Origin: a virus
DNA: 64,000 nucleotides
Virus record (IMG/VR): IMGVR_UViG_3300005096_000137
Coordinates: 32,001 to 96,000 of that record
Strand: one strand, 5' to 3'
Part shown: one piece after another, positions 4,958 through 46,006 of the stretch
Position numbering within the stretch: the first letter of the stretch is position 1
How the letters are laid out: the number at the start of each line of letters is the position of its first letter
Notes under the pieces: model-generated
Database searches by the model: none
The model's input: the letters and a program-made list of their open reading frames with translations, nothing else
Told to the model about the DNA's origin: nothing
Program-made: the position numbers and the translations under genes

Positions 4958-5914
4958 TTGGTACAATATAGTATGGACGTATCTACTGTACCAATTGAAA
5001 TGATTGACCCACCTAATCCGATTCTCCGGAGATTCTCTGAGAATTCGGTTCAGTTCCTAGAACTTGTTGACCAAATCAAGTCCTGTGGTGGGGCATTACA
5101 AGCCCCACCCGCACGCCCTGTTGAGAGGGGTCGGGTTCAGCTATGTGATGGTTATCGCCGCTATCGGGCAACCATTAAAGCAGGTCTCTCCCACATGAAC
5201 CTGGTTATTCAGGAGATGGATGATGTCGAGTACCTGGCAAACCAGATGCTCTGCAACTCTATGCACGAAGAAACGGACTGGATCGATTACGCAAAACACC
5301 TTGATCGCCTTCGGCATCTTAATAACACCGAGATGACGTTGCGAGACCTGGCAGGTTACTGTAGTCGGTCAACCCAGTGGGTACGCCAGGTTTTGAACCT
5401 CAACCACCTCCATCCCCACTTTGCTAAGATGGTGAAGAATAACGAAGTCCCAATTGGTAACGCCAAGATGTTGGCTCGATTACCATTGAGTGAGCAGGTA
5501 CACTTCATTGATGATGCCCAAACCATGGGGTCCATGGAATTTGTACGGGTGGTTCGCCGGGCTATCAATGATTACCGGGAAGGTATCAAGCAGGGCAGGC
5601 TTCTGAAACTGGGGAAGGACAATTTCCGCCCAGTTATGCGTGACCTCCGGGTTGTTGAAGAGGAATTGCGATCCCCTTCCCATCTCCCTGCACTCATTGT
5701 CGCAGCGGGTATTACTAACGTGGCGGAGGCCGCCCAGCTTGCTCTTCAGTGGGCGTTCCGGGTTGATCCTAAGACTCTCGCAGAGCGTCAGGAGAGTGTC
5801 CATGCCAACGAAGTCCAGCACCTCCAAGATACTGAATATCGCAAGCACGCACGAAAACTTATACAATTTGCTGAAGAATCCCAGACACGCTCTTGTCCAA
5901 AGGGCGAGCTTTGA
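4958..5914 (+). CDS. ParB/Srx-like protein with HTH
   Basis: LCDGYRRYRA (GxRR) motif; HTH MTLRDLAGYCSRSTQWVRQVL. Confidence 0.75.
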   Translation: MVQYSMDVSTVPIEMIDPPNPILRRFSENSVQFLELVDQIKSCGGALQAPPARPVERGRVQLCDGYRRYRATIKAGLSHMNLVIQEMDDVEYLANQMLCNSMHEETDWIDYAKHLDRLRHLNNTEMTLRDLAGYCSRSTQWVRQVLNLNHLHPHFAKMVKNNEVPIGNAKMLARLPLSEQVHFIDDAQTMGSMEFVRVVRRAINDYREGIKQGRLLKLGKDNFRPVMRDLRVVEEELRSPSHLPALIVAAGITNVAEAAQLALQWAFRVDPKTLAERQESVHANEVQHLQDTEYRKHARKLIQFAEESQTRSCPKGEL

Positions 5915-8110: not shown

Positions 8111-9756
8111 CTCAGGAATCAGCGGAAGCGTTCTATGACAAACTTGAGCGACACCTCGACTATTTCCGCAAGGAATTCGATTTAACCTACTTTGAGCTGG
8201 TGGGTGCATTGACGCACATGGCTCACACTCTTTCCAGCGAGGCTGAAGCCCTTGACGAAGAATCAACCGAATACGAAGACGAAGACGAAGACGAAGACGA
8301 AGCCTATGGCACGGGCTTCGACGAAGGGTTCCAAGAAGGGTTCAAAACCTGCCAAGAGGAAGGTAACGGCACCGTTGACCGAGGCCTCCGTGCAGGACAC
8401 AAAGAAGTCCTCGAAGATGGGCACGGGTCACCGGACCAGTTCGACGCAGGTCACAGAACCGGGTACGAGTACGGTCTCGAAGAAGGCCGGGACAAAGGCT
8501 ACAACGAGGGCTACAAGGACGGGCTCCAAGAAGGCCAAGACAAAGGAACCCGTGATTCCAATAGAGTGGATGAGGGCAAAGAAGGACCAGACTGACTGTT
8601 CTAAGAGGCGGAAATGGATGTCTCGGTGTGGTCGGTTCAAAGTGGTGGAGTGCATCAGCCTACTGGGTTTGAACACAATCTACTATGCCATAAGGTTTCA
8701 ACGAATGGATGACGGGCGAGTCCAAGAGTACATCATCAGTCGGCATCGGAAACGTAATCCAGCAGAAAAGGCGTGTGACAAATGGCAACGGAAGCGGAAG
8801 TAAAATCAAGAGAAGTCAGGCTGACTGCTGATTGGAAGTTCAAGATTGGTCTGCGGAAACGGCTGCGGGAATCATTGAAGAAATACGACGGGTCAGTGTT
8901 CGAGATGATTGGGGCTTTGACTGCCCTAGCGTCTCAGATTTCTGTGTTATCAGAAGGTTGGACGTCCCAGGCGGGTGGTGAAGTCTATATTGATTTGGCT
9001 GACTTTCTAACTGAAGCTCGGGTGGATAAAGACTTGACCCTTCCGACCATAGTAGGTATCTTGAATATCATGGCGTTGGATATTAACCGTCTGGGGTTTA
9101 CAGTTGCCACATCATGAGTCGTACATCAGAGCGGGTTATGTCAAGTCAGAATTTCTACAAAGACTTACAAGTTCTTGCCCAGCGTGTGGGTGAGGCCCAA
9201 GGTCTGGATTTCTCAGAACTAATTGGGGCCTTAATTACAGTTCGCCAATACTTGGCTCCAGGTTGTGGGCATACCACACTAGGTCTCCAGGCTGCCACAC
9301 GTAAGATGCTGAGGGAAGTCACTGATCTTATTGACCAACATAGCGTCAATCTGGATCAGGTTATCGGTTCAATCACGATATTGGTTGCAAAGATTACATC
9401 TGTTGGATTAGAACAGGAGTCAACAGCTTGGATATCAGCAAAGAAGGAGAATCCTAATGGCTACCCCAATTAAATCCTTCTATGCTGAATTAGCAGACGC
9501 TTTGGAATCAGTGATTGATGCTGGGGACCTGGACTATGTGGGTATCCTGGGGCTCCTTACGCTCGTCCAACATCATTGTCTCCACGTAAATGACACCCAG
9601 CTCCCTATCATGGATGAGGTCGCGGATCTATTTTCCGTAACGGTTGGGAGGCTACAATTTGAACACAAGGTCACCCAGAGCCAGGTCGTCGGGGCTTTGA
9701 CGCTGTTGAAAGCCCAAACGGCTGAGATTGGCATGAGTGTCTGGGGACAGCAATGA
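8107..9756 (+). CDS. cluster of small related helical proteins (8107-8595, 8782-9117, 9114-9473, 9457-9756) plus an unrelated basic ORF (about 8570-8803)
   Basis: shared motif L(T/D)xxEhhGAL; overlapping start/stop codons. Confidence 0.6.
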
Positions 9757-21018: not shown

Positions 21019-21230
21019 GTGAGTGGGTTATGGACGTGACAGGCCTGACCGCCTGGGAGGTAAGATTCCTCGCCCACTTGCATGGAGGACCCTACGAGGT
21101 GGGGACGTACATGGGTAAAAGTCCATTATGGAAGAACTACCCGCGTGCGTCGAGGTTCGTAACCTTACTCCTCCGCTTTAGTTTATCAACTGAACCGGCA
21201 CCGGATGGTGTTCCTTCGTGACTCACCCAC
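21019..21230 (+). ncRNA. candidate structured ncRNA (about 210 nt, rod-like)
   Basis: 16-bp terminal helix with 1 mismatch; nested ggagga/tcctcc and gacgtacatgggta/tacccgcgtgcgtc helices. Confidence 0.5.
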
Positions 21231-21331
21231 GATAGGTTGGTAAGCGTTAATGGGCGGTCCCCGCGACAAGTCTATACGACAAACCGTCTGGGGTACGACT
21301 CCCCGCCCTTTGATACAAATGAGGTGGATGA

Positions 21332-24881: not shown

Positions 24882-24956
24882 GCCGTAGTGGTGTAAATGG
24901 CACAGCATACCAGGGCGTCCACCCTGGAGGCATGGGTTCGATTCCTGGGTGCGGCA
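24882..24956 (+). ncRNA. tRNA-like RNA with 8-nt anticodon loop
   Basis: gccgta/tgcggc acceptor, ccagg-gcgtccac-cctgg, ttcgatt T-loop. Confidence 0.55.
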
Positions 24957-24967
24957 CTTTGAGTTTT

Positions 24968-25072
24968 GCAGCGGTGGTGTAAAAGTGATCTAGGGAGGCC
25001 TCTCTAGGTACCATAGGTGAACATTACTGGGTTAGATACCCGGAGATGGGGGTTCGACTCCCCCACGCGGCG
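24968..25072 (+). ncRNA. tRNA-like RNA with hairpin inserted in D loop (copy 1)
   Basis: cloverleaf with ctaggga-ggcc-tctctag insert; T arm gggggttcgactccccc. Confidence 0.6.
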
Positions 25073-25083
25073 CTTCGAGTTTT

Positions 25084-27419: not shown

Positions 27420-27494
27420 CAGGTCGGTAAGCTTAAATTGGATAAAGCACTTGGTAGCTCCAAGGTTACGGAGGTTCGAGTCCTCCCCACCTGA
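27420..27494 (+). ncRNA. tRNA-like RNA with 5-nt anticodon loop
   Basis: D arm, cttgg-tagct-ccaag, perfect T arm ggaggttcgagtcctcc. Confidence 0.5.
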
Positions 27495-27499
27495 CTTAT

Positions 27500-27575
27500 T
27501 GTGCAGCAGCTTAAACCTGGTTCAAGCGACCACCTATCTGGTGGCTGAGTGGGGGTTCAAATCCACCCTGCACGT
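27500..27575 (+). ncRNA. tRNA-like RNA with atypical anticodon loop (ctATCtg)
   Basis: tgtgcag/ctgcacg acceptor, D and T loops. Confidence 0.5.
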
Positions 27576-27580
27576 CTCAT

Positions 27581-30643: not shown

Positions 30644-32698
30644 ATGTCCAAGACCGAACGCCGTATCCTTGAAACCCAATTGTATGTTGACCTAAACGGG
30701 GGTCTCCGAGCCAAGTACCCTGTTACGATGGCAGTTAGTCCTACCACAATTGAATTCCAGAGATCACCCTTCCAGCTCAAGGATGAGATTAAAGCGCTCA
30801 AGGGCGCTAAGTGGATGGGCTTCCACCCCACAGAGCCTAAGAAGGTTTGGACAGCGGATAACTGTGCGAGGAACTGGTTCCAGCTCAAGTACCTAATGGG
30901 GCAGAATCCCTATGAGTGGTTCGACCGCGAGTTGATCAAGCACGAGTTTCGAGACTTTCCCTCTGTTTTGGATAAGAAAGGGAAGCCCTGTAAGCTGATG
31001 AGCCATCAAGCTCACATGGTAAACGTTGGGTTGACCTACCATTACCAGATTTGGGGTGCAGAAATGGGCACGGGCAAAACCTTATCCGCCCAGACCCTCA
31101 TGGAGATGTCTGGTCAGGAAACTTGGTTCTGGGTTGGTCCCCTCAAATCTCTGGAAAACATTGAGCGCGAGTTCGAGAAGTGGGATTGCCCGTTATCCTT
31201 GTGCATTCCAAAGGATGGGGCGAGTCTGTTGTCAGCAGTCCGCGCAAATGAACACAACATCTACATGACCACTTACGAGCGACTTCTCCGGTACATGGCT
31301 ATCAAAGAACCAGATGAGCGTGTTCCCGGTGGTGTTATCTTCGATGAGTCTTCACGTCTGAAGACCCCAACCGCTCAGCGGACGAAGGCTGCCATGCAGC
31401 TCGCCGATGACATTCGCACAGAGTACAAGGAAGACGGTTTTGTCATCCTGATGTCTGGCACCCCCTCGCCGAAGTCCCCCCTAGATTGGTGGAGCCAATG
31501 CGAAATAGCCTGGCCTGGCTACCTGCGGGAGGGTTCCAAAGGTCAGCTCCAAAAGACATTGGCATTCATGGTGTTGCATGAACTCCCGGACAACATCGTC
31601 AATGTTCAGATAGGTTGGAAAGACAACGATAAGAAGTGCGCCAAGTGTGCTGACATGAAGGGTGAGGGTGCCCACGTTTATGATCCAGATAACCCAGATC
31701 AAGACAGGCACGTCTTCGTGAAATCCAAGAACGAAGTCGCATACATGTACGACCGGTTGGCAGGGTTAGCAACCATCATCCACAAGAAGGATGTGCTGGA
31801 CCTTCCGCCAAAGGTCTACGAGATTGACATCTGCGAGCCATCTGCATCAACAATGCGGGTCGCCAAACATCTGGCGGCTTCTGCACCCAATGTGATGACT
31901 GGTATCACCTGGCTACGTGAACTCAGTGATGGCTTTATGTACAAGGAGATTGCTGATGGTGTTCGCCAGTGTCCCACTTGTGCTGGCTCACCTGAGGACG
32001 GGCAAGTTAAGGTCTGGCGAGACCCTGATTCCCCTGGTGAGTGCATCCGCGCGATTGACATGCTTGACCAGGAGTACGTGGATACCCTTGAAGAAGGGTA
32101 TGACACCTGCCCAAGCTGCAAGGGTACTCGACAAGTTCCAAAGAAGACACGGGTTGCCAAGATGGTCCCCTGTCCGAAAGAGAAGGCTCTCAAGAATCGG
32201 CTTGCACAGTGCGAAGAGACAGGTCGGATTGTCATCTTCGCTGGTTTCCAGGGCAGTATTGACCGCATCAAGGGTATCTGCAAGAAGTCCGGCTGGGATG
32301 TGGTCCAGTGTGACGGTCGCGGCTGGCAGGTTATTGATAAGACAGGGAAGAAGGTTCAGACCAACAAGCCTCTAAGCTACTGGGCTGATCGTGAGCACCA
32401 TCAGCAGGTTGCCTTTGTGGCTCACCCTGCATCAGGTGGTTTGAGCCTCAATCTCACTGAAGCACGGATGATTGTGTACTGGTCCAATGACTTCAATCCT
32501 GAGTCCAGATCTCAAAGTGAGGACCGGATCCACAGAAAGGGTATGTCTGAAAACCATGGGGCAAAGATTGTGGACCTCTACCACCTCCCTAGTGACGAAC
32601 ACGTCCACACAGTACTCAAAGCTAATCGGAAGTTGGAGCTTATGACCCTCGGGGAATTGTTCCCTGATGCACCCGAGGTTAAGAAAACCAAGGGCTAA
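30644..32698 (+). CDS. SF2/SNF2-like helicase with CxxC inserts
   Basis: EMGTGKT, IFDESS, MSGTP, GGLSLNLT, QSEDRIHRKG. Confidence 0.85.
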   Translation: MSKTERRILETQLYVDLNGGLRAKYPVTMAVSPTTIEFQRSPFQLKDEIKALKGAKWMGFHPTEPKKVWTADNCARNWFQLKYLMGQNPYEWFDRELIKHEFRDFPSVLDKKGKPCKLMSHQAHMVNVGLTYHYQIWGAEMGTGKTLSAQTLMEMSGQETWFWVGPLKSLENIEREFEKWDCPLSLCIPKDGASLLSAVRANEHNIYMTTYERLLRYMAIKEPDERVPGGVIFDESSRLKTPTAQRTKAAMQLADDIRTEYKEDGFVILMSGTPSPKSPLDWWSQCEIAWPGYLREGSKGQLQKTLAFMVLHELPDNIVNVQIGWKDNDKKCAKCADMKGEGAHVYDPDNPDQDRHVFVKSKNEVAYMYDRLAGLATIIHKKDVLDLPPKVYEIDICEPSASTMRVAKHLAASAPNVMTGITWLRELSDGFMYKEIADGVRQCPTCAGSPEDGQVKVWRDPDSPGECIRAIDMLDQEYVDTLEEGYDTCPSCKGTRQVPKKTRVAKMVPCPKEKALKNRLAQCEETGRIVIFAGFQGSIDRIKGICKKSGWDVVQCDGRGWQVIDKTGKKVQTNKPLSYWADREHHQQVAFVAHPASGGLSLNLTEARMIVYWSNDFNPESRSQSEDRIHRKGMSENHGAKIVDLYHLPSDEHVHTVLKANRKLELMTLGELFPDAPEVKKTKG

Positions 32699-39871: not shown

Positions 39872-40507
39872 GTGTTGAATCGACGTGACTTGTTAAAGAT
39901 GTTCGGCGTGGGGGCAGTCTCAGCCACCATCCCAGCATCCCTCTCTCGGGCTGTGGTTCCTAAGAACGAGATTGTTGAGGTGCCTTGGCAGGAACCTCCT
40001 GAGGCGGCACCCTTTGGGTTCGCTGACCCTCCCCCGAAACCAGATGAACTGGATGACCTGGTTGAGAACCTGCCCGTCCCGGCTCCCGTCGATGCAGTTC
40101 ATGAGAGCCTCAGGGGTCAGGGGTTAGTCAGGCTGGATGAACATGGTGTGGTTACGTTTCACAACACCAATACTGACGAGAAGGTACATCTCAAAATACA
40201 CGAGGGTTCCATGGCCTATGGGCAAAGTATGGATGTGCAGTTTAGTCATGACCGAGGTCGACTGACTGTGCCGAATGCCAGCCATGGTCCCCTAGAGGTC
40301 AGTTTGTACGCACGTATTGCAGAAGTGGTCTCCCCTAACCCTGGTTGGCTTCAGACAATTCGGAGTGCAGGTCCAGAGGGCCTGGATATGATCATCTCGT
40401 TGCCGAACTCTGACCTACTGGTACTGTTTTCCAGGTTGGTGTACCAGTCGATGTCTCTCGACCCCAAAGAAGGGCTATTTGAAATTGAAGGGGTATGCTA
40501 CAATTGA
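39872..40507 (+). CDS. twin-arginine signal protein
   Basis: LNRRDLLKMFGVGAVSA. Confidence 0.6.
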   Translation: MLNRRDLLKMFGVGAVSATIPASLSRAVVPKNEIVEVPWQEPPEAAPFGFADPPPKPDELDDLVENLPVPAPVDAVHESLRGQGLVRLDEHGVVTFHNTNTDEKVHLKIHEGSMAYGQSMDVQFSHDRGRLTVPNASHGPLEVSLYARIAEVVSPNPGWLQTIRSAGPEGLDMIISLPNSDLLVLFSRLVYQSMSLDPKEGLFEIEGVCYN

Positions 40508-41379
40508 GCTATGATTATGAAGTTGCTGGGCATGTCTACGTCGTCCCACTCCATGACATCTACGTGGACCCTGATTTCAATTGCCGGGGTGCATTTGCTC
40601 CTCATGAAGTTCACGGACTTGGTCAGAGTATCTCGGAAGAAGGTCAACGGGCTCCCATAGTTGTCCAACCTCTGGACGACGTCCCTGGACCAGAGCAGCC
40701 CCTGGGTGACTGGACCTTTCGTTTGATCGCCGGACATCGCCGCTACATGGCAATCGATAAATGGTCTACGGGTACTACTATCAACTGTGTGGTGGAGAGG
40801 GGACTGACCCGTGAACAGGCTTGCACTCTTAACTTCTCAGAGAATCTCCAGAGAAAGGACCTGAACATCTTGGAGGAGGCTCGCGCACTCCACCGCACCT
40901 GGCCAATCCAGTCATTGGGCATGATCTCAAAACTCATTGGGAAACCTAAGAAGTGGATCCACGCTCGCCGGATGCTCCTCCAGCTCCCTGATTACGTCCA
41001 GACACGGGCAGCCAGTAACGGTATTTCCCAGTACGATATCCTAATGCTTGCCAAACTCCCGCCCGACAGGGTGGAGGCAGCCTACGAGAAGCTGACTTCG
41101 TCAAAAGGAAAGACGGGGCGACGACCAGTGGTAGCCGGCAAACAGAAGTGGAGAAACCGACCTCGGGGAATCAATGAAATCTCAAAGATGGTCGCATTCC
41201 TGCTCCGCCACCAGCGATTCTCAGAACTTTCCGAAGCCGAAATTACTCTGGTCACGTCAACCCTGGTCTGGGTCACTAAAGGCATTGACGCACAGGAGTT
41301 ACTAGAGAACAGGTTTGGCTTCCCCGAGGGCAGCGTGGCTATCGATTCCACTGACGAAATTGAGGGAATGAAAGATTAG
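40495..41379 (+). CDS. ParB/RepB/Spo0J-like protein
   Basis: PIVVQ, LIAGHRRYMA, ENLQRKDLNILEEA. Confidence 0.85.
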   Translation: MLQLSYDYEVAGHVYVVPLHDIYVDPDFNCRGAFAPHEVHGLGQSISEEGQRAPIVVQPLDDVPGPEQPLGDWTFRLIAGHRRYMAIDKWSTGTTINCVVERGLTREQACTLNFSENLQRKDLNILEEARALHRTWPIQSLGMISKLIGKPKKWIHARRMLLQLPDYVQTRAASNGISQYDILMLAKLPPDRVEAAYEKLTSSKGKTGRRPVVAGKQKWRNRPRGINEISKMVAFLLRHQRFSELSEAEITLVTSTLVWVTKGIDAQELLENRFGFPEGSVAIDSTDEIEGMKD

Positions 41380-41404
41380 CCGCAGGTTTTATTGAAATTG
41401 GTTC

Positions 41405-41432
41405 TTGACTTCCCGGACCCATCGAGTATACT
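41405..41432 (+). promoter_or_regulatory. sigma70-like promoter for the Y-RNA/tRNA-like cluster
   Basis: TTGACT-16 nt-TATACT. Confidence 0.65.
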
Positions 41433-41542
41433 TGGTAATAGAACGTGCCAAAGATTCAAGACTAATTCCAGCCAAAAGAGCTGGTGAACTCTAACTTGAG
41501 GACAGAACGATGTAGTTGGCTGGGTGAAAGCCCAGCACCCTT

Positions 41543-41667
41543 GGAGGGGTAGCTCAGTTGGTAGAGCGCCAGTAGCATAAAAACAGTTGTGACAAACTTG
41601 CTATTAAGCCGAACATAGCTGATTATCTCGGAACTGGATGTCGCGGGTTCGAGACCCGCCCCCTCCG
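41543..41667 (+). ncRNA. tRNA-Y RNA chimera 1 (Ro-binding-like helix replacing the anticodon loop)
   Basis: GGAGGGG/CCCCTCC acceptor, canonical D and T arms, ccagt/actgg stem enclosing a 59-nt insert with ACTTGCT-atta-AGCCGAA...ATTATCT. Confidence 0.8.
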
Positions 41668-41669
41668 CT

Positions 41670-41734
41670 GCCTAAGCCGAAGTCAATGCGTTATCTTTCA
41701 TATGATTACCCGCACCGACATTCACTTGCCAGGC
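41670..41734 (+). ncRNA. minimal Y RNA-like gene 1
   Basis: gcct-AAGCCGAA-gtcaatgcGTTATCT...cgcaccgac-attCACTTGC-caggc. Confidence 0.75.
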
Positions 41735-41759
41735 TATTTTAGATGTAGACCAATACTTT

Positions 41760-41878
41760 ACGGGGGTAGCTCAGTTGTTAGAGCACCAGCTCGGGCCATT
41801 ACGACAAACTGTCCGGACAGTCTTGTATAACGGGTCACAGGGAGCTGGGGGTCGGTGGTTCAATTCCTCCTCCCCGTA
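41760..41878 (+). ncRNA. tRNA-like RNA with about 50-nt hairpin in place of anticodon loop
   Basis: acggggg/tccccgt acceptor, D arm, ccagctc/gagctgg stem, palindromic apex actgtccggacagt. Confidence 0.7.
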
Positions 41879-41883
41879 CTACT

Positions 41884-41949
41884 GCCTAAGCCGAAATCAA
41901 TGCGTTATCTTTCATATGATTACCCGCATTAACATTCACCTGCTATGGC
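41884..41949 (+). ncRNA. minimal Y RNA-like gene 2
   Basis: near-duplicate of 41670-41734. Confidence 0.75.
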
Positions 41950-42039
41950 GTTTTGAGTGTAGACCACGGACTACGAGCATCTTAGGCTGCTTATGGCCCT
42001 GGGGTCTCAGTTGTAGTTCAAGTCTGCCGCACTCACCTT

Positions 42040-42107
42040 GGGCGAAGCCGCAGCTCATGCGTTATCCTTGTAAGATTTGCCGCATACAGCATCGACTTGC
42101 TAAGCCC
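42040..42107 (+). ncRNA. minimal Y RNA-like gene 3 (divergent)
   Basis: gggc-gAAGCCGCA-gctcatgcGTTATC...cgcatacagc-atcGACTTGC-taagccc. Confidence 0.7.
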
Positions 42108-42120
42108 AATAATACAAAGT

Positions 42121-42138
42121 CCCCGCCTTCGGGTGGGG
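42121..42138 (+). terminator. GC hairpin after the RNA cluster (terminator or processing signal)
   Basis: ccccgcc-ttcg-ggtgggg; no clear U-tract. Confidence 0.4.
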
Positions 42139-42200
42139 CGTTCGCACAAAGTCCCTGTCCGCCCTTATGGCGGGCAGGGTAGTGATTCAAGGAGAGTAAT

Positions 42201-42572
42201 GTGTCTGATTACGATGAGTTTGAATCTGAGTTTGAAGCCGAGGAATTCAAGGCAGAAATCAAACAGATGCAAGCAGAGTCGCAAGGGGTGGCTCTAGACC
42301 ACGCAATTTATCGAGAAGCTTCACAGCATGCTGTGTTTGATGAATGGCAGATAGTCTCTTTATTGAACCAAGATGCCTACTTCGTGGATGGTTGTGATCT
42401 GGAAGCTGATCCCAAGACAGGTAAGTGTGTCTGTGTGATTCTCCGAGAGAAGGATGAGGGTACTGGTAAAATGTGTAACCACTATTATACACTGAAGAAT
42501 GCCCTGATCCGCCTCCGTCACATAACGCCCAACTTGTTCCTCGCGAACGTGAAGGGGCAATCGGATGACTGA
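42201..42572 (+). CDS. hypothetical protein (PxLF family)
   Basis: C-terminal YTLKNALIRLRHITPNLF. Confidence 0.6.
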   Translation: MSDYDEFESEFEAEEFKAEIKQMQAESQGVALDHAIYREASQHAVFDEWQIVSLLNQDAYFVDGCDLEADPKTGKCVCVILREKDEGTGKMCNHYYTLKNALIRLRHITPNLFLANVKGQSDD

Positions 42573-42891
42573 CTCCAAGATACCAACCGAGTTGGAATTG
42601 GCTGAAAAGAAGTACCATTATTTAGTGATTCGAGAATCCATTTTGAAAGCCGCGAAATCACACCGGGTTTACTGGCCATTGCAGATTCTCCTACTTCTTA
42701 GGGACCAAGCTTATATTGAAGGTGGCTATGGTGGCAATTCATATGAGATTCCTTCTGGTGTGGTGCGCGTGAATCTGGATGTAAAAACCTTGAATCCTAC
42801 CAGTCCGGCGAAAAGACTCTATTCTTTAGATCGTGTTATGAAACGACTTCGGCAAATTCATCCAAGTCTATTTAACCTGGGGGTTGAATAA
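42565..42891 (+). CDS. hypothetical protein (PxLF family)
   Basis: C-terminal YSLDRVMKRLRQIHPSLF. Confidence 0.6.
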   Translation: MTDSKIPTELELAEKKYHYLVIRESILKAAKSHRVYWPLQILLLLRDQAYIEGGYGGNSYEIPSGVVRVNLDVKTLNPTSPAKRLYSLDRVMKRLRQIHPSLFNLGVE

Positions 42892-42896
42892 CCAGA

Positions 42897-43463
42897 ATGA
42901 ACTTTCAGAATACGACTGGGAATTATGCCATTGCAGCCGGTCTGGCCGCTTCTGCGCATACTAAGCAACGTCGGAAAGACCCTGATAGGACCCCCTACAT
43001 CAATCACCCACTTGAAGTTGCCGTCCTCTTAACATATGATGGGCAAGTGGATGATGTGGATACTCTGATCGCAGCAGTCCTTCATGATGTTGTGGAAGAT
43101 ACAGATATCACGCTAGGTTTTATCTTCACCCTGTTTGGTCCCCGAGTGAGGGACATCGTGGCCGAGGTTACTGACGACAAGTCGCTCCCGAGTGCAACAA
43201 GGAAGCAACTACAAATTGACAACGCCCCTGGTAAGTCAGACGCCGCCAAGATGATTAAGATCGCGGATAAGATAGTCAATATCCAAGACATGAGCACAGA
43301 GTCCCCTGTTGGCTGGTCGACTGACCGGAAGTTCGAGTACATTGATTGGGCGACGAAAGTCGTGGCAGGTTGTGCCGGCGTGAATTCTAATTTGGATGCC
43401 ATATTTCACAGTGCGGCTATCCAAGCCAAAGCCAACTGTACTACTGTTGGGAACCATGAGTAA
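42897..43463 (+). CDS. MESH1/SpoT-type HD-domain hydrolase (small alarmone hydrolase-like)
   Basis: HTKQRRKD...PYINHP, AAVLHDVVEDT, EVTDDK, KIADKIVN. Confidence 0.88.
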   Translation: MNFQNTTGNYAIAAGLAASAHTKQRRKDPDRTPYINHPLEVAVLLTYDGQVDDVDTLIAAVLHDVVEDTDITLGFIFTLFGPRVRDIVAEVTDDKSLPSATRKQLQIDNAPGKSDAAKMIKIADKIVNIQDMSTESPVGWSTDRKFEYIDWATKVVAGCAGVNSNLDAIFHSAAIQAKANCTTVGNHE

Positions 43464-43526
43464 CCTCAATTCTACACGGTAACTCTCCGAGGGTTACTGT
43501 GCAAACTTTATGATTGGAGACAGAGA

Positions 43527-43844
43527 ATGGCAATTACTTTAGACACCACCTATCACGGCGTAGTTCAAGAGGTCCGTAACCTAAGCTACCAATGGGCAGA
43601 CAATTTGGTCGCCCTCTTGATTGTCGAAGCGGCTATGAAGCAAGGGGCTTTTAATCCACAGCAGGTCCGGGTACTTTTAGCAGACGGAGCCACGACTAAT
43701 CCTAATGTCAATCCTCATTTTGGATTACCTCGGGACTTTGAGGTCCGGATAAGTAACAGCCACACAGGGGGTGTCGGGATGTCTCTTGAACAGGCAGTGA
43801 GTTACTTGAAAGAGACCCAGCCCAATTTGTTCCTGGCTGACTAA
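43527..43844 (+). CDS. hypothetical protein (PxLF family)
   Basis: C-terminal MSLEQAVSYLKETQPNLF. Confidence 0.6.
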   Translation: MAITLDTTYHGVVQEVRNLSYQWADNLVALLIVEAAMKQGAFNPQQVRVLLADGATTNPNVNPHFGLPRDFEVRISNSHTGGVGMSLEQAVSYLKETQPNLFLAD

Positions 43845-43851
43845 TACATGT

Positions 43852-43984
43852 AGTCCAAGAGCAACGGAATCAGAACCGAATAATGACTCTAAACTGAATC
43901 GACAAATCTGACCACCCTGGGTGGAGTCCGAGAGCAACGGAATCAGAACCGAATAATGACTCTAAACTGAATCGACAAATCTGA
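43852..43984 (+). repeat. 60-bp direct repeat, two copies (period 73)
   Basis: agtcc(a/g)agagcaacggaatcagaaccgaataatgactctaaactgaatcgacaaatctga at 43852 and 43925. Confidence 0.9.
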
Positions 43985-43990
43985 ATCGAT

Positions 43991-44137
43991 GCGACTGTGG
44001 TGTAATGGTAGCACACATACTAACTAGGTTGTCAATAACTTGCGCAGAAGAAGTACCTTCGGGGAACCACGCTGAGCCGAATGTTAACCGTTATCTCTTG
44101 CACGAGTGTGGACTAGGTTCAATTCCTAGCAGTCGTT
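43991..44137 (+). ncRNA. tRNA-Y RNA chimera 2, immediately upstream of ro60
   Basis: gcgactg/cagtcgt acceptor, D arm, T arm ctaggttcaattcctag; insert ggttgtca..ACTTGC...AGCCGAA-tgttaacc-GTTATCT. Confidence 0.8.
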
Positions 44138-44165
44138 TTAACAATTTCACTGGAGAACTGAAATC

Positions 44166-45740
44166 ATGTCCTACTCAACTGATATTGGTCGAACTGATCA
44201 AGTTACTAACAACCAAGGTGGTCGTGTCTTCCAGATTGACTGCTGGGCACGCCTAGAGCGGTTCCTCATTCTTGGACACGAGGGTGGGAGCTACTACGCC
44301 GAGCAGCAGAAGCTGACTCTTGAGACAGTTGTTTGTATTGATGAGTGTCTGGCTGAAAGTTCGTACCTCATGGTGAAGGCTATCGTGGACATCAGCCAAT
44401 CAGGACGGGCTCCAAAGAATGACCCGGCCATCTTTGCGCTTGCCTACGTAGTGTCAAAGAAGGACGAGTCATCCCAGTATGCGCTCAAGTTTCTGGGGGA
44501 TGTGTGTCGGATTGGGACACATCTTGCTCAGTTCCTAAATCACTGTAAGAACCTTGGCAGAGGTTGGGGTCCATCATTCACGCGGGCAGTTGCTGAGTGG
44601 TACAACCGTGATCCAGAACGGCTTGCCATGCAGGTGACAAAATACGCGAACCGAAAAGGGTGGACACATCGTGACATTCTCCGCAAGGCGCACCCTTCGT
44701 CCAAGGATAAGAAGCTTGACAACATCTTCTGTTACCTGACCCAACATGCGAAGTGGTCACGCCGGAAGAACTCGGGACCTGCTGATGAGTTCCTGTGTGC
44801 GGTGGATGAAGCTAAGGACTCAAAAACGACCGTGGCTCGGCTCGTGGAACTAATTCAGTTGTATGGGCTGGTGCGCGAGCACATGCCAACCAATGCTTTG
44901 AACAATCGAGAAGTCTGGATGGCGCTGCTTCAAAACATGCCACTCACGGCAATGATTCGCAACCTGGGTAAGATGTCCAGCATTCGACTCCTCACACCCC
45001 TGAGCACTGGTTCAAAGCTGGTGCGGTCTGCACTCGAAGACTCTGGAAACCTAAAGAAACAACGGGTTCATCCCTTGTCATTACTGATTGCGCTCAAGCA
45101 ATATGGCGAAGGTCAGGGTCTTCGTGGCTCCCTTACTTGGGACCCTGTCCCACAGATTATGACAGGCTTGGACAATGCCTTCTATGAGGCGTTTGACTTC
45201 GTGGAGCCGACCAATAAGAACCACCTCCTAGGTGTTGATGTCTCAGGCTCTATGGACTGGACCAACTGTGTTGGGGCAGGTGTTCTCAAATGTTCCGAGG
45301 GTGCAGCAGCTATGGCTATGCTGGCAGCTCGGACAGAAGAGAACACGCACGTCTTTGGTTTTGCCGACGATTTCCGTGACCTGGGTATCACTGCTTCAGA
45401 TTCCTTGCAGACTGCATTGAAGAAGACCGAGACTGGGACCTTCGGCGGTACGGATTGTGGACTCCCCATGCACTACGCCGCCAATCATGGGATTGAGGTG
45501 GATGTGTTCTGCGTCTACACGGACAATGAAACGGGTGGTGGCTACTACAGTCGGACCAAGGACCCACACCAGGAACTTGAACGCTACCGGCAGACAATGG
45601 GACGGGACGCTAAACTGGCAGTGTTCGGGATGGCACAGAACGAGTTTAGTGTTGCTGATCCTAAAGACGCTGGGCAAATGGACTTTGTTGGATTTGATGC
45701 GTCGGCTCCAACTTTACTTGCGAACTTCGTTCGTGACTGA
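44166..45740 (+). CDS. rsr: Ro60/TROVE-domain RNA-binding protein with vWA domain
   Basis: NNQGG, RLERFLILGHEGGSYY, RIGTHL, KYANRKGWTHRDILRKAHP, MPLTAMIRNLGKM, DVSGSM (MIDAS), GGTDC, YTDNET, GFD. Confidence 0.95.
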   Translation: MSYSTDIGRTDQVTNNQGGRVFQIDCWARLERFLILGHEGGSYYAEQQKLTLETVVCIDECLAESSYLMVKAIVDISQSGRAPKNDPAIFALAYVVSKKDESSQYALKFLGDVCRIGTHLAQFLNHCKNLGRGWGPSFTRAVAEWYNRDPERLAMQVTKYANRKGWTHRDILRKAHPSSKDKKLDNIFCYLTQHAKWSRRKNSGPADEFLCAVDEAKDSKTTVARLVELIQLYGLVREHMPTNALNNREVWMALLQNMPLTAMIRNLGKMSSIRLLTPLSTGSKLVRSALEDSGNLKKQRVHPLSLLIALKQYGEGQGLRGSLTWDPVPQIMTGLDNAFYEAFDFVEPTNKNHLLGVDVSGSMDWTNCVGAGVLKCSEGAAAMAMLAARTEENTHVFGFADDFRDLGITASDSLQTALKKTETGTFGGTDCGLPMHYAANHGIEVDVFCVYTDNETGGGYYSRTKDPHQELERYRQTMGRDAKLAVFGMAQNEFSVADPKDAGQMDFVGFDASAPTLLANFVRD

Positions 45741-46006
45741 ATATGACGAATAACGAAGACAGCATGACATGTTCCCAATGGGCAGAAGCACATCGAGCCA
45801 ACCCCACTGAGGACACACAAACTCCATCCCCGGAGTTGTTGCGAGTCCTAGAGTGGCAGCGTGAGCAGCGGTCAGTTCGCTGGTTCATAAAGTGGTTGTT
45901 CTCGGATAACAATAATCGCTAGGAGGTGCCCAATGGTCCCTCTTTGGCCATGCGGTGCTTAGCACCCCGGCTGGACATATCAGTGTGGTTGGTCGCCACG
46001 AGTAGG

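Follow-up and report, generated by a model that had tools for sequence, protein, structure and literature searches.

Two topologies among the five Y-RNA-type modules of a phage Ro60 locus: three small hairpins and two chimeras in tRNA order

The protein Ro60 has obligatory partners, the Y RNAs, in organisms that range from bacteria to humans. The locus described here associates a gene for this protein with five Y-RNA-type modules, three of which are small hairpins (mini-Ys E2, E3 and E4) while the other two, E1 and E5, are chimeras that follow the strand order of transfer RNA (tRNA). It belongs to a stretch of 64,000 nucleotides, hereafter the window, which extends from position 32,001 to position 96,000 of the IMG/VR virus record IMGVR_UViG_3300005096_000137, a phage genome of 148,427 bp, complete according to CheckV, with 50% G+C and many tRNA genes. 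A first-pass annotation made from the letters alone had seen in this region a full-length Ro60/TROVE gene, and its product does match Pfam TROVE and vWA_Ro60 (E 1e-51 and 2e-35), NCBIfam Rsr (E 4e-129), human and Xenopus Ro60 (about E 1e-110) and the structures PDB 9nen, 1yvp and 2nvo (E 1e-105 to 1e-110), the closest Ro60 proteins being 60-64% identical. The same annotation had placed five copies of a common motif near this gene. Written as AGCCGMA-N6-10-RTTATC, the motif has exactly five matches in the window, at 41607, 41675, 41889, 42046 and 44075, the last ending by 44095, when 0.02 would be expected in shuffled sequence; all are on the + strand, and the five modules that contain them lie at most 2.7 kb upstream of the Ro60 gene (Table 1).

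Each module also possesses a partner strand, AC(T/C)TGC, found 3' of the motif in E2, E3 and E4 and 5' of it in E1 and E5; the two topologies that had been proposed are therefore real. As the gene layout has it, the ends of the RNA form the Ro stem in the mini-Ys, and in the chimeras a loop closes it. The mini-Ys are hairpins of 65-72 nt in which the 5' and 3' ends make a GCCGA/UUGC stem with one bulged C, followed by an upper stem and then by GUUAUC at the start of the apical loop. The first half of the chimeras consists of the acceptor 5' strand, the D arm, the 5' strand of the anticodon stem, the upper stem and the Ro 3' strand; the other half runs from the Ro 5' strand through the upper stem and (G/A)UUAUC to the 3' strand of the anticodon stem, the T arm and the acceptor 3' strand. 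In the gene the hexamer reads GTTATC in E2 to E5 and ATTATC in E1.

In E1 the acceptor stem is of 7 bp and the D arm is standard; a 5-bp stem CCAGU/ACUGG, a variable loop AUGUC and a T arm complete the body, and all the bases of the tertiary contacts, as read from the sequence, have been kept (U8, A14, G15/C48, G18G19 and the T loop UUCGAGA). Where the anticodon loop should be, we find the upper stem and the Ro helix (ACUUGC-loop-GCCGAA), then AUUAUC. Rfam tRNA (RF00005) recognizes 41543-41667 with 52.6 bits, for a gathering score of 29, and places a 59-nt insert at the anticodon loop. E5 is built on a tRNA body unlike that of E1, with a Ro helix lengthened by an arm that ends in a UUCG loop; Rfam does not report it as a tRNA, and it was found only by ARAGORN and by the chimera model R1 presented below. 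A third tRNA-like body is located between E2 and E3 (Rfam tRNA at 41760-41878, 47.4 bits against the gathering score of 29, with a 52-nt insert and a T-stem mismatch). The earlier description of an anticodon-less tRNA stands insofar as this is a tRNA body with a hairpin insert; it falls as regards a separate design. A unit made of tRNA-like body, mini-Y and linker has been tandemly duplicated, with a period of 214-217 nt, and when the two units are aligned the motifs of the E1 insert have become, in the copy, ACTGTC (from ACTTGC), GTCTTG (from GCCGAA) and GGTCAC (from ATTATC), while the D loop has become GTTGTT with loss of G19, so that both D loop and T stem are weakened. This body is thus a decayed tandem duplicate of E1. 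None of the three bodies has a seven-base anticodon loop on its 5-bp stem, the inserts measuring 59 nt in E1, 52 nt in the decayed copy and ~76 nt in E5.

Table 1. Features of the locus, in window coordinates (R1 and R2 are the covariance models of chimeras and mini-Ys described in the text)
Feature	Position	Strand	Characteristics
Sigma-70-like promoter candidate for the non-coding array	41405-41432	+	TTGACT-16-TATACT, 10/12 consensus
E1, tRNA-order Y RNA (class b)	41543-41668	+	R1 102.6 bits
E2, mini-Y	41670-41734	+	R2 49.9 bits; intact GCCGA/UUGC helix with bulged C; GUUAUC starts the loop
Decayed E1 duplicate	41760-41879	+	tRNA-like body; insert is a long hairpin with palindromic tip, Ro motifs gone
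E3, mini-Y	41884-41949	+	R2 50.2 bits; E2 duplicate, 85% identity (repeat family D1)
Structured spacer	41955-42036	+	Long hairpin with T-arm-like GTAG-TTCAAGT-CTGC and pairing ends
E4, mini-Y	42038-42109	+	R2 39.6 bits and motif match; GCCGCA, 6-bp terminal stem
Two G+C-rich hairpins closing the array	42121-42180	+	Read from sequence; neither with U tail
orfA	42201-42572	+	123 aa; weak paralogue of orfB, BLASTP A vs B E 4e-7
orfB	42565-42891	+	108 aa; weak paralogue of orfA
MESH1-like small alarmone hydrolase (HD_4)	42897-43463	+	188 aa; Pfam HD_4 E 1.5e-13
orfC	43527-43844	+	105 aa; marginal orfA paralogue, BLASTP E 0.004
Two 63-nt direct repeats	43849-43984	+	97% identical, CCACCC-TG-GGTGG hairpin between; repeat family D3, just upstream of E5
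E5, tRNA-order Y RNA (class c)	43991-44137	+	D arm GGTGTAATGGTAGCAC; ARAGORN intron mode; R1 43.8 bits
Ro60/Rsr gene	44166-45740	+	524 aa, full length; TROVE ring and C-terminal vWA domain

The significance of these modules is best appreciated in the company of their relatives. Querying viral contigs with the single protein retrieved no relative; with an alignment of homologues as the query we collected 188 related Ro60 loci, 28 on viral contigs, 80 in metagenomes and 80 on metagenome-assembled genomes (MAGs) from GTDB. The strict motif is present in 73 of the 108 viral and metagenome loci, in 2-6 copies, nearly always on the strand of Ro60 and no farther from the gene than about 1 kb on its upstream or about 2.5 kb on its downstream side, and at the motif sites of related loci ARAGORN in intron mode reports many 'tRNAs with introns' of 120-150 nt. 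Two covariance models were made, R1 from a MAFFT alignment of 16 chimeras and R2 from a MAFFT alignment of 52 mini-Ys. Among the aligned chimeras 86.9% of the cells are paired (66.1% in shuffles), double changes occur in 28 of 35 pairs and the Ro helix is 96% paired; among the aligned mini-Ys 88.8% of the cells are paired (67.0% in shuffles) and GTTATC is present in 52 of 52. R1 returned 66 matches of at least 100 nt in 95 sources, in which the Ro helix is 95% paired and the upper stem 80.5% paired with many double changes, the two strands of the Ro helix varying in concert (GGCCGA/TTGCC, GACCGA/TTGTC, AACCGA/TTGTT, AGCCGA/TTGCT, GGTCGA/TTACC). R2 returned 139 matches at E<1e-3 in 94 loci, and 57 further ones in MAG loci. 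All of the 139 and all of the long R1 matches are on the Ro60 strand, with none of the R2 set on the opposite one, and the motif is strictly linked to TROVE genes elsewhere, as had been anticipated. The proposal of a bulged-C helix with a G.U pair is likewise upheld by the compensatory changes seen in relatives, the G.U pair being kept in 43 of 52 mini-Ys and 48 of 64 chimeras.

Class c chimeras, defined by the D arm GGTGTAATGGTAGCAC of E5, occur in at least 11 other loci, and an alignment of 12 loci displays covariation in acceptor, T, upper-stem and Ro-helix pairs. Strong chimeras are also present on MAG contigs labelled Planctomycetota and Myxococcota. In this Ro60 clade the possession of several Y RNAs per locus (2-6 or more) is the normal state, and the locus of the window is a typical, somewhat eroded member of it. 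The multiplicity of the RNAs, which the first-pass annotation had held to be possibly new, is thus not new; their architecture may be, as no published description of the tRNA-order form was found. Other unusual RNAs accompany Ro60 in this set: L098:9406-9630 is a permuted transfer-messenger RNA (tmRNA), and Gordonia phage GMA2 (L195:4725-5136, 5446-5502) has a tmRNA and a pistol ribozyme beside a YrlA-like RNA and a tRNA array.

Back in the genome of the phage itself, the matches of R2 are the three mini-Ys only, and the long matches of R1 are the three long tRNA-like genes only. A single extra loose match to the motif in the whole 148-kb genome, at window 431, was rejected as a Y RNA and treated as a chance occurrence, R2 having no match there even with its filters off. 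The recurring words CAAAGTCCC and TGTAGACCA, considered as genome-wide elements, were rejected as well, being local duplicates only. Just upstream of tRNA-Ile, two tRNA-like sequences at 27420-27495 and 27500-27576 have R1 scores of 39.0 and 31.6 bits and are called neither by ARAGORN nor by Rfam at gathering; their 'anticodon' stems, as read from the sequence, close loops of 5 nt (CTTGG-TAGCT-CCAAG and CCACC-TATCT-GGTGG). On the - strand, ARAGORN in intron mode reports a 'tRNA-Ser, 117-nt intron' at 24882-25073 and a 'tRNA-Leu, 60-nt intron' at 5263-5413, which have neither R1 nor Rfam support and are probably false positives.

The organization of the chimeras evokes YrlA, the bacterial Y RNA in which a GNCGAAN0-1G element is joined to a tRNA-like domain in which the T arm comes first, then a closed acceptor hairpin, then the D arm (Chen et al., 2014; PMC4201824). 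YrlA has been likened to a circularly permuted tRNA, and its origin from a dimeric tRNA transcript has been discussed (Wang et al., 2018; 10.1101/312249). One of the related loci, L008, has two RNAs in YrlA order, at 8182-8322 and 8366-8512. If E1 is cut in the loop of its Ro stem while its acceptor ends are joined, it aligns from end to end with L008:8182-8322, with 86 of 123 positions identical; this alignment scores 105, where shuffles reach 41 +/- 5.5 and E1 left unpermuted reaches 67. A second permuted pair, made of a chimera of L001 and L008:8366-8512, has 93 of 123 positions identical. The two wirings are therefore homologous circular permutations of each other, and E1 is an un-permuted YrlA. 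In L005, L007, L021 and L024 tandem chimeras are separated by about 7 nt, and duplication could lead from such an arrangement to the permuted order. The Rfam model fails to detect the tRNA-order form: in the window Rfam YrlA (RF02553) gives one partial match of 18.2 bits at 41517-41567, for a gathering score of 69, and the YrlA-order RNAs of the related phage loci and of three cultured actinophages are also below that score. Among five cultured phages (Phosso, SparkleGoddess, GMA2, ET08 and FuzzBuster) no clear tRNA-order form was found; GMA2, ET08 and FuzzBuster have YrlA-order matches, all sub-threshold. It must be added that Chen et al. (PMC4201824) discarded the candidates that overlapped tandem tRNA genes, a choice under which the tRNA-order class would escape notice.

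The distances between modules point to a mode of maturation. In the related loci, 17 free-standing Ro motifs start 6-11 nt beyond the point where a tRNA or tRNA-like sequence ends in 3', other distances being scattered, and the stem of the mini-Y therefore starts within a few bases of that end. The window offers two instances, E2 beginning 2 nt past the end of E1 (41668 to 41670) and E3 following the decayed copy (41879 to 41884). This suggests processing by RNase P and RNase Z. In all 12 genuine tRNA genes of the phage (window 7137-29669) the discriminator base is followed by C, then T(T), and CCA is therefore not encoded; E1 and the decayed copy share this N-C-T trailer, and most class b relatives have a C after the discriminator. 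No CCA-adding enzyme was found in the phage genome. In Mycobacterium smegmatis, YrlA is cut by RNase P and gains CCA in vivo (PMC4201824). As a side observation, the tRNA-rich region of the window also contains a match to the Rfam DUF3800-IX RNA (21181-21249, 45.6 bits against a gathering score of 36.8).

We may now propose that the locus is a phage Ro60 ribonucleoprotein cassette working as follows, an explanation to which, taken as a whole, we would give a probability of about 0.7 and in which we infer the transcription and processing of the RNAs, the addition of CCA, the binding to Ro60 and the target in the cell. A single transcript starting near 41433 would contain E1, the mini-Ys E2 to E4 and two decayed tRNA-like spacers, the second tRNA-order Y RNA, E5, being placed directly before the Ro60 gene. 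The tRNA-like bodies would act as processing marks, the host RNase P cutting their 5' ends and RNase Z or trimming acting after the discriminator base; these cuts would free chimeras whose ends are of the tRNA type and are probably completed to CCA, and would at the same time set the 5' ends of the mini-Ys a few bases downstream. Each Y module would then dock against the outside of the ring formed by the phage Ro60, by means of the bulged-C and G.U helix (GNCGA over UUGN), as its conservation and covariation lead us to expect, and the invariant GUUAUC beside the upper stem probably takes part in docking. The tRNA-like L-shape of the chimeras would be an effector or stability domain, by analogy with bacterial YrlA, and the set of RNAs probably gives a single Ro60 several adaptors or gates, for example towards the host polynucleotide phosphorylase (PNPase), as in Deinococcus and in phage phiLo (PMC12135203). 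By analogy with both systems, the RNAs probably tether Ro60 to exoribonucleases of the host or gate it with them. In this way RNA decay or RNA quality control would be reshaped during infection. A role against host defence is possible (PMC11482910).

Several features of the locus weigh against this explanation. In E3 (A.C) and in E4 (C.U) a mismatch takes the place of the A:U pair next to G.U, and none of E2, E3 and E4 has the two G:C pairs usually found under the helix; these three RNAs, E3 and E4 with one broken pair in addition, may bind Ro60 weakly. The Ro helix of E1 has only 4 bp and the bulge, and RNAfold favours a competing CUUG/UAAG hairpin; it is because of the comparison with relatives that we retain the bulged-C helix there, the fold of E1 itself favouring another hairpin. 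The minimum free energy (MFE) of E5 is no better than that of shuffles. At gathering thresholds Rfam sees no Y_RNA, stem-bulge RNA (sbRNA) or YrlA in the window, where matches at E<=10 remain sub-threshold. Alignments made by covariance models are biased towards the structure of the model, a bias of which the counts based on MAFFT are free. The promoter that the annotation had put before the array scores better than any other site in 41250-45900, and in this respect it stands; it is a consensus match only, which may not suit the type of promoter used by the host, and such sites are no commoner in the region than in shuffles (6 vs 4.4). Finally, the cellular role of phage Ro60 is in general poorly known.

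Other explanations have to be considered. The tRNA-like bodies might be mere punctuation for processing, the chimeras being precursors that are degraded or that yield the Y hairpin by excision, while only the hairpin-type Y RNAs work with Ro60; the distance of 6-11 nt at which mini-Ys follow tRNA(-like) 3' ends would fit, as would the copy at 41760-41879, which has retained its tRNA-like body after losing its Ro motifs, like a pure processing signal. We nevertheless hold this to be unlikely, for some 60 chimeras have conserved the Ro helix, the upper stem and GUUAUC alike within their tRNA body, E1 keeps every one of its tertiary-contact bases, and the same unit of two domains is also found in YrlA order, with a tRNA domain that belongs to the mature RNA (PMC4201824). 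It might also be argued that E5, perhaps even the whole array, acts in cis, Ro60 binding the leader of its own messenger and regulating itself. E5 ends 28 nt before the start codon of Ro60, its T arm and T run resemble a terminator, and in many relatives a Y module lies at most 200 nt from the start of Ro60. This too seems improbable to us: relatives have their arrays upstream or downstream of Ro60 (for example L008, L013, L088 and L098), and free ends in a tRNA body imply that it is excised from the messenger, a role in trans being in any case compatible with one in cis.

The gene inserted between the array and Ro60 deserves separate attention. The annotation was correct in seeing there a hydrolase of the MESH1 type: the protein matches PDB 3nr1, the human HDDC3, with E 4e-48 over residues 13-168 and 5vxa, MESH1, with E 4e-47, and LHDxVEDT is present. 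From this it had gone on to suggest that Ro60, its Y RNAs and the hydrolase could act as one counter-defence module combining RNA surveillance with removal of alarmones, a reading that belongs to speculation. Small alarmone hydrolases are known both in phages and as antitoxins, the HD gene is on the same strand as its neighbours, and the phage also encodes a full-length RtcB RNA ligase (G000:C1:135839-137167, outside the window; Pfam E 3e-104). In bacteria rsr and Y RNAs are often located in an rtcBA operon; here the RtcB gene is 60 kb from Ro60 and unlinked to it. Furthermore, a Ro60-like protein of phage Bas63 has been reported to counter the Ppl defence (PMC11482910). Co-occurrence speaks against the module, which we regard as quite improbable: an HD homologue lies within 6 kb of Ro60 in 0 of 108 viral or metagenome loci and in 1 of 80 MAG loci, that is, in 1 of 188, and the closest relatives, L029 and L069, which share the upstream ParB-like gene, both classes of chimera and Ro60, have neither the HD gene nor the small open reading frames (ORFs). 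The ParB-like gene itself (40495-41379) is directly upstream of the array, a position kept in these two relatives (52% identity in L029, 51% in L069). As for orfA, orfB and orfC, no homologue was found within 6 kb of Ro60 in the 108 loci, nor any of orfA or orfB in the 188. We consequently rejected the hydrolase and the three small ORFs as conserved partners of Ro60, and they are lineage-specific insertions between array and Ro60, passengers outside the system. The last of the alternatives, that the chimeras are intron-containing tRNA genes spliced to yield decoding tRNAs, is very improbable, and we rejected it. ARAGORN does label them tRNA-Pro(cgg), tRNA-Pro(ggg) and tRNA-Cys(gca), the introns measuring 46-76 nt, and a conserved GGAAC before the 3' stem strand resembles the remnant of an anticodon loop. 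Yet the 'intron' holds a conserved Ro60 site that covaries as a helix, the inserts fall far short of the length of group I introns, to our knowledge the only tRNA introns of bacteria and phages, the anticodons called vary without pattern among homologues, and the acceptor stems covary freely with no conserved identity set.

The remaining features of the locus may be described briefly. The spacer at 41955-42036, which precedes the third mini-Y, has an MFE of -32.3 kcal/mol (z -2.5) and no match to R1; its T-arm-like sequence and pairing ends make it possibly the remnant of a third tRNA-like body. A terminator scan made no call on the hairpins at 42121-42180. The repeats at 43849-43984 contain ACCGAA, and were rejected as Y modules: there is no UUG partner strand, neither R1 nor R2 matches, and the fold is no better than that of shuffles. 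The products of orfA, orfB and orfC share a C-terminal motif, L..L...P(N/S)LF, with a loose likeness to clamp-binding peptides; orfA and orfB have no match in Pfam, NCBIfam or PHROG, orfC has no family match either, and the protein atlas gives weak viral leads only, for orfB and orfC.

What might this organization mean? Beyond the cassette itself, we entertain, tentatively and with the odds somewhat against it, a joint reading in which the tRNA-order Y RNAs are a distinct and widespread class of Ro60 adaptors, matured in the way of tRNAs, intermediate on the path to YrlA and endowed with an ancient UUAUC. Maturation would be ensured by RNase P and RNase Z, followed by CCA addition and perhaps by charging or by tRNA modification, and a tandem chimera, read from the Ro 5' strand of its first copy to the Ro 3' strand of the second, would have exactly the permuted order of YrlA. 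Were this true, the chimeras could bring Ro60 to enzymes that handle tRNAs, or be decoys for defences that target tRNAs; there would be direct support for the 'dimeric tRNA' origin of YrlA; and the UUAUC common to animal Y and stem-bulge RNAs would be an ancient feature linked to Ro60 rather than one specific to DNA replication. These are central questions about Y RNAs, namely how effector domains act, where YrlA comes from and what UUAUC is for. Thanks to a genuine acceptor end, a Y RNA may undergo maturation, CCA tailing and even charging, and as related phages have YrlA-order and tRNA-order RNAs side by side, homologous by permutation, the tRNA origin of YrlA becomes directly testable. In the literature that was searched, which did not include the reviews PMC10870794 and PMC6047535, we found no description of tRNA-order Y RNAs; published searches for YrlA would have missed or discarded them, and in annotations such genes are mislabelled as intron-containing tRNAs or left out altogether.

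It remains to place these RNAs among known systems. The wiring of E1 and E5 is a variant of the known bacterial YrlA RNA, and a third wiring of the Ro-binding and tRNA-like modules. With YrlA (RF02553, described in Salmonella, M. smegmatis and mycobacteriophages; PMC4201824, 10.1101/312249) they have in common a GNCGAA Ro stem joined, at the position of the anticodon stem, to an L-shape made of D arm, T arm and acceptor stem, and a gene beside Ro60 on the same strand. Whereas YrlA strings together the Ro 5' strand, the T arm, a closed acceptor hairpin, the D arm and the Ro 3' strand, E1 and E5 adopt true tRNA order, with the D arm before the T arm, an open 7-bp acceptor stem and a Ro stem closed by a loop; in addition, GUUAUC is invariant in the phage RNAs considered here and absent from the Rfam consensus of YrlA. 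After cleavage by RNase P, the YrlA of M. smegmatis does present an open acceptor stem and a CCA tail while bound to Rsr, as we propose for the chimeras, but it is then an RNA in two pieces, derived from a nicked permuted precursor, where the chimeras are encoded as one chain. Yrn1 of Deinococcus radiodurans and the Ro-stem RNAs that hold a whole tRNA in their loop are yet another wiring of the same two modules, differing in that the Ro stem extends the acceptor stem and the tRNA part has no free ends. An RNA of this kind is found in L008 (7948-8090), where a Y-type stem (GCGAGGGCCGAAG ... ACCTTGTCTTCGC) surrounds a complete tRNA-Ile(gat) in its apical loop; with its two YrlA-order RNAs and its mini-Ys, this locus combines three wirings.

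Among phages the nearest parallel is Thermus phage phiLo (PMC12135203), in which Y-like RNAs with a CGAA motif lie just upstream of a phage Ro60 that binds Yrl1 and Yrl2, encoded there, and the PNPase of its host in vitro; its RNAs are two, of the hairpin type only, and neither a tRNA-order form nor an array punctuated by tRNAs has been described for it. The mini-Ys, finally, have the motif set of animal Y RNAs, and in phage Ro60 loci such as this one the adaptors are encoded as whole arrays. Animal Y and nematode stem-bulge RNAs combine a bulged-C Ro site with a conserved UUAUC in the loop (PMC4726728), and the likeness to vertebrate Y RNAs that the first-pass annotation had put forward is sustained by Rfam: the nematode sbRNA family RF01656 outscores every other non-tRNA family in the window, while staying below threshold (E2, 22.1 bits, E 0.23, for a gathering score of 38), RF00019 having no match there at E<=10, and the mini-Y of a relative, L013:7745-7817, reaches 40.2 bits and passes gathering. 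As in these families (RF00019, RF01656; Kowalski and Krude, 2015, PMC4726728), the mini-Ys are hairpins of 60-75 nt with an end stem that contains a bulged C and a G.U pair, then an upper stem, then UUAUC at the start of the loop. They differ in being encoded by a phage, not by RNA polymerase III genes with a U tail, in the sub-threshold scores of the copies in the window, and in the 3-nt bulge that faces the C in vertebrates, which in the mini-Ys gives way to an asymmetric internal loop.

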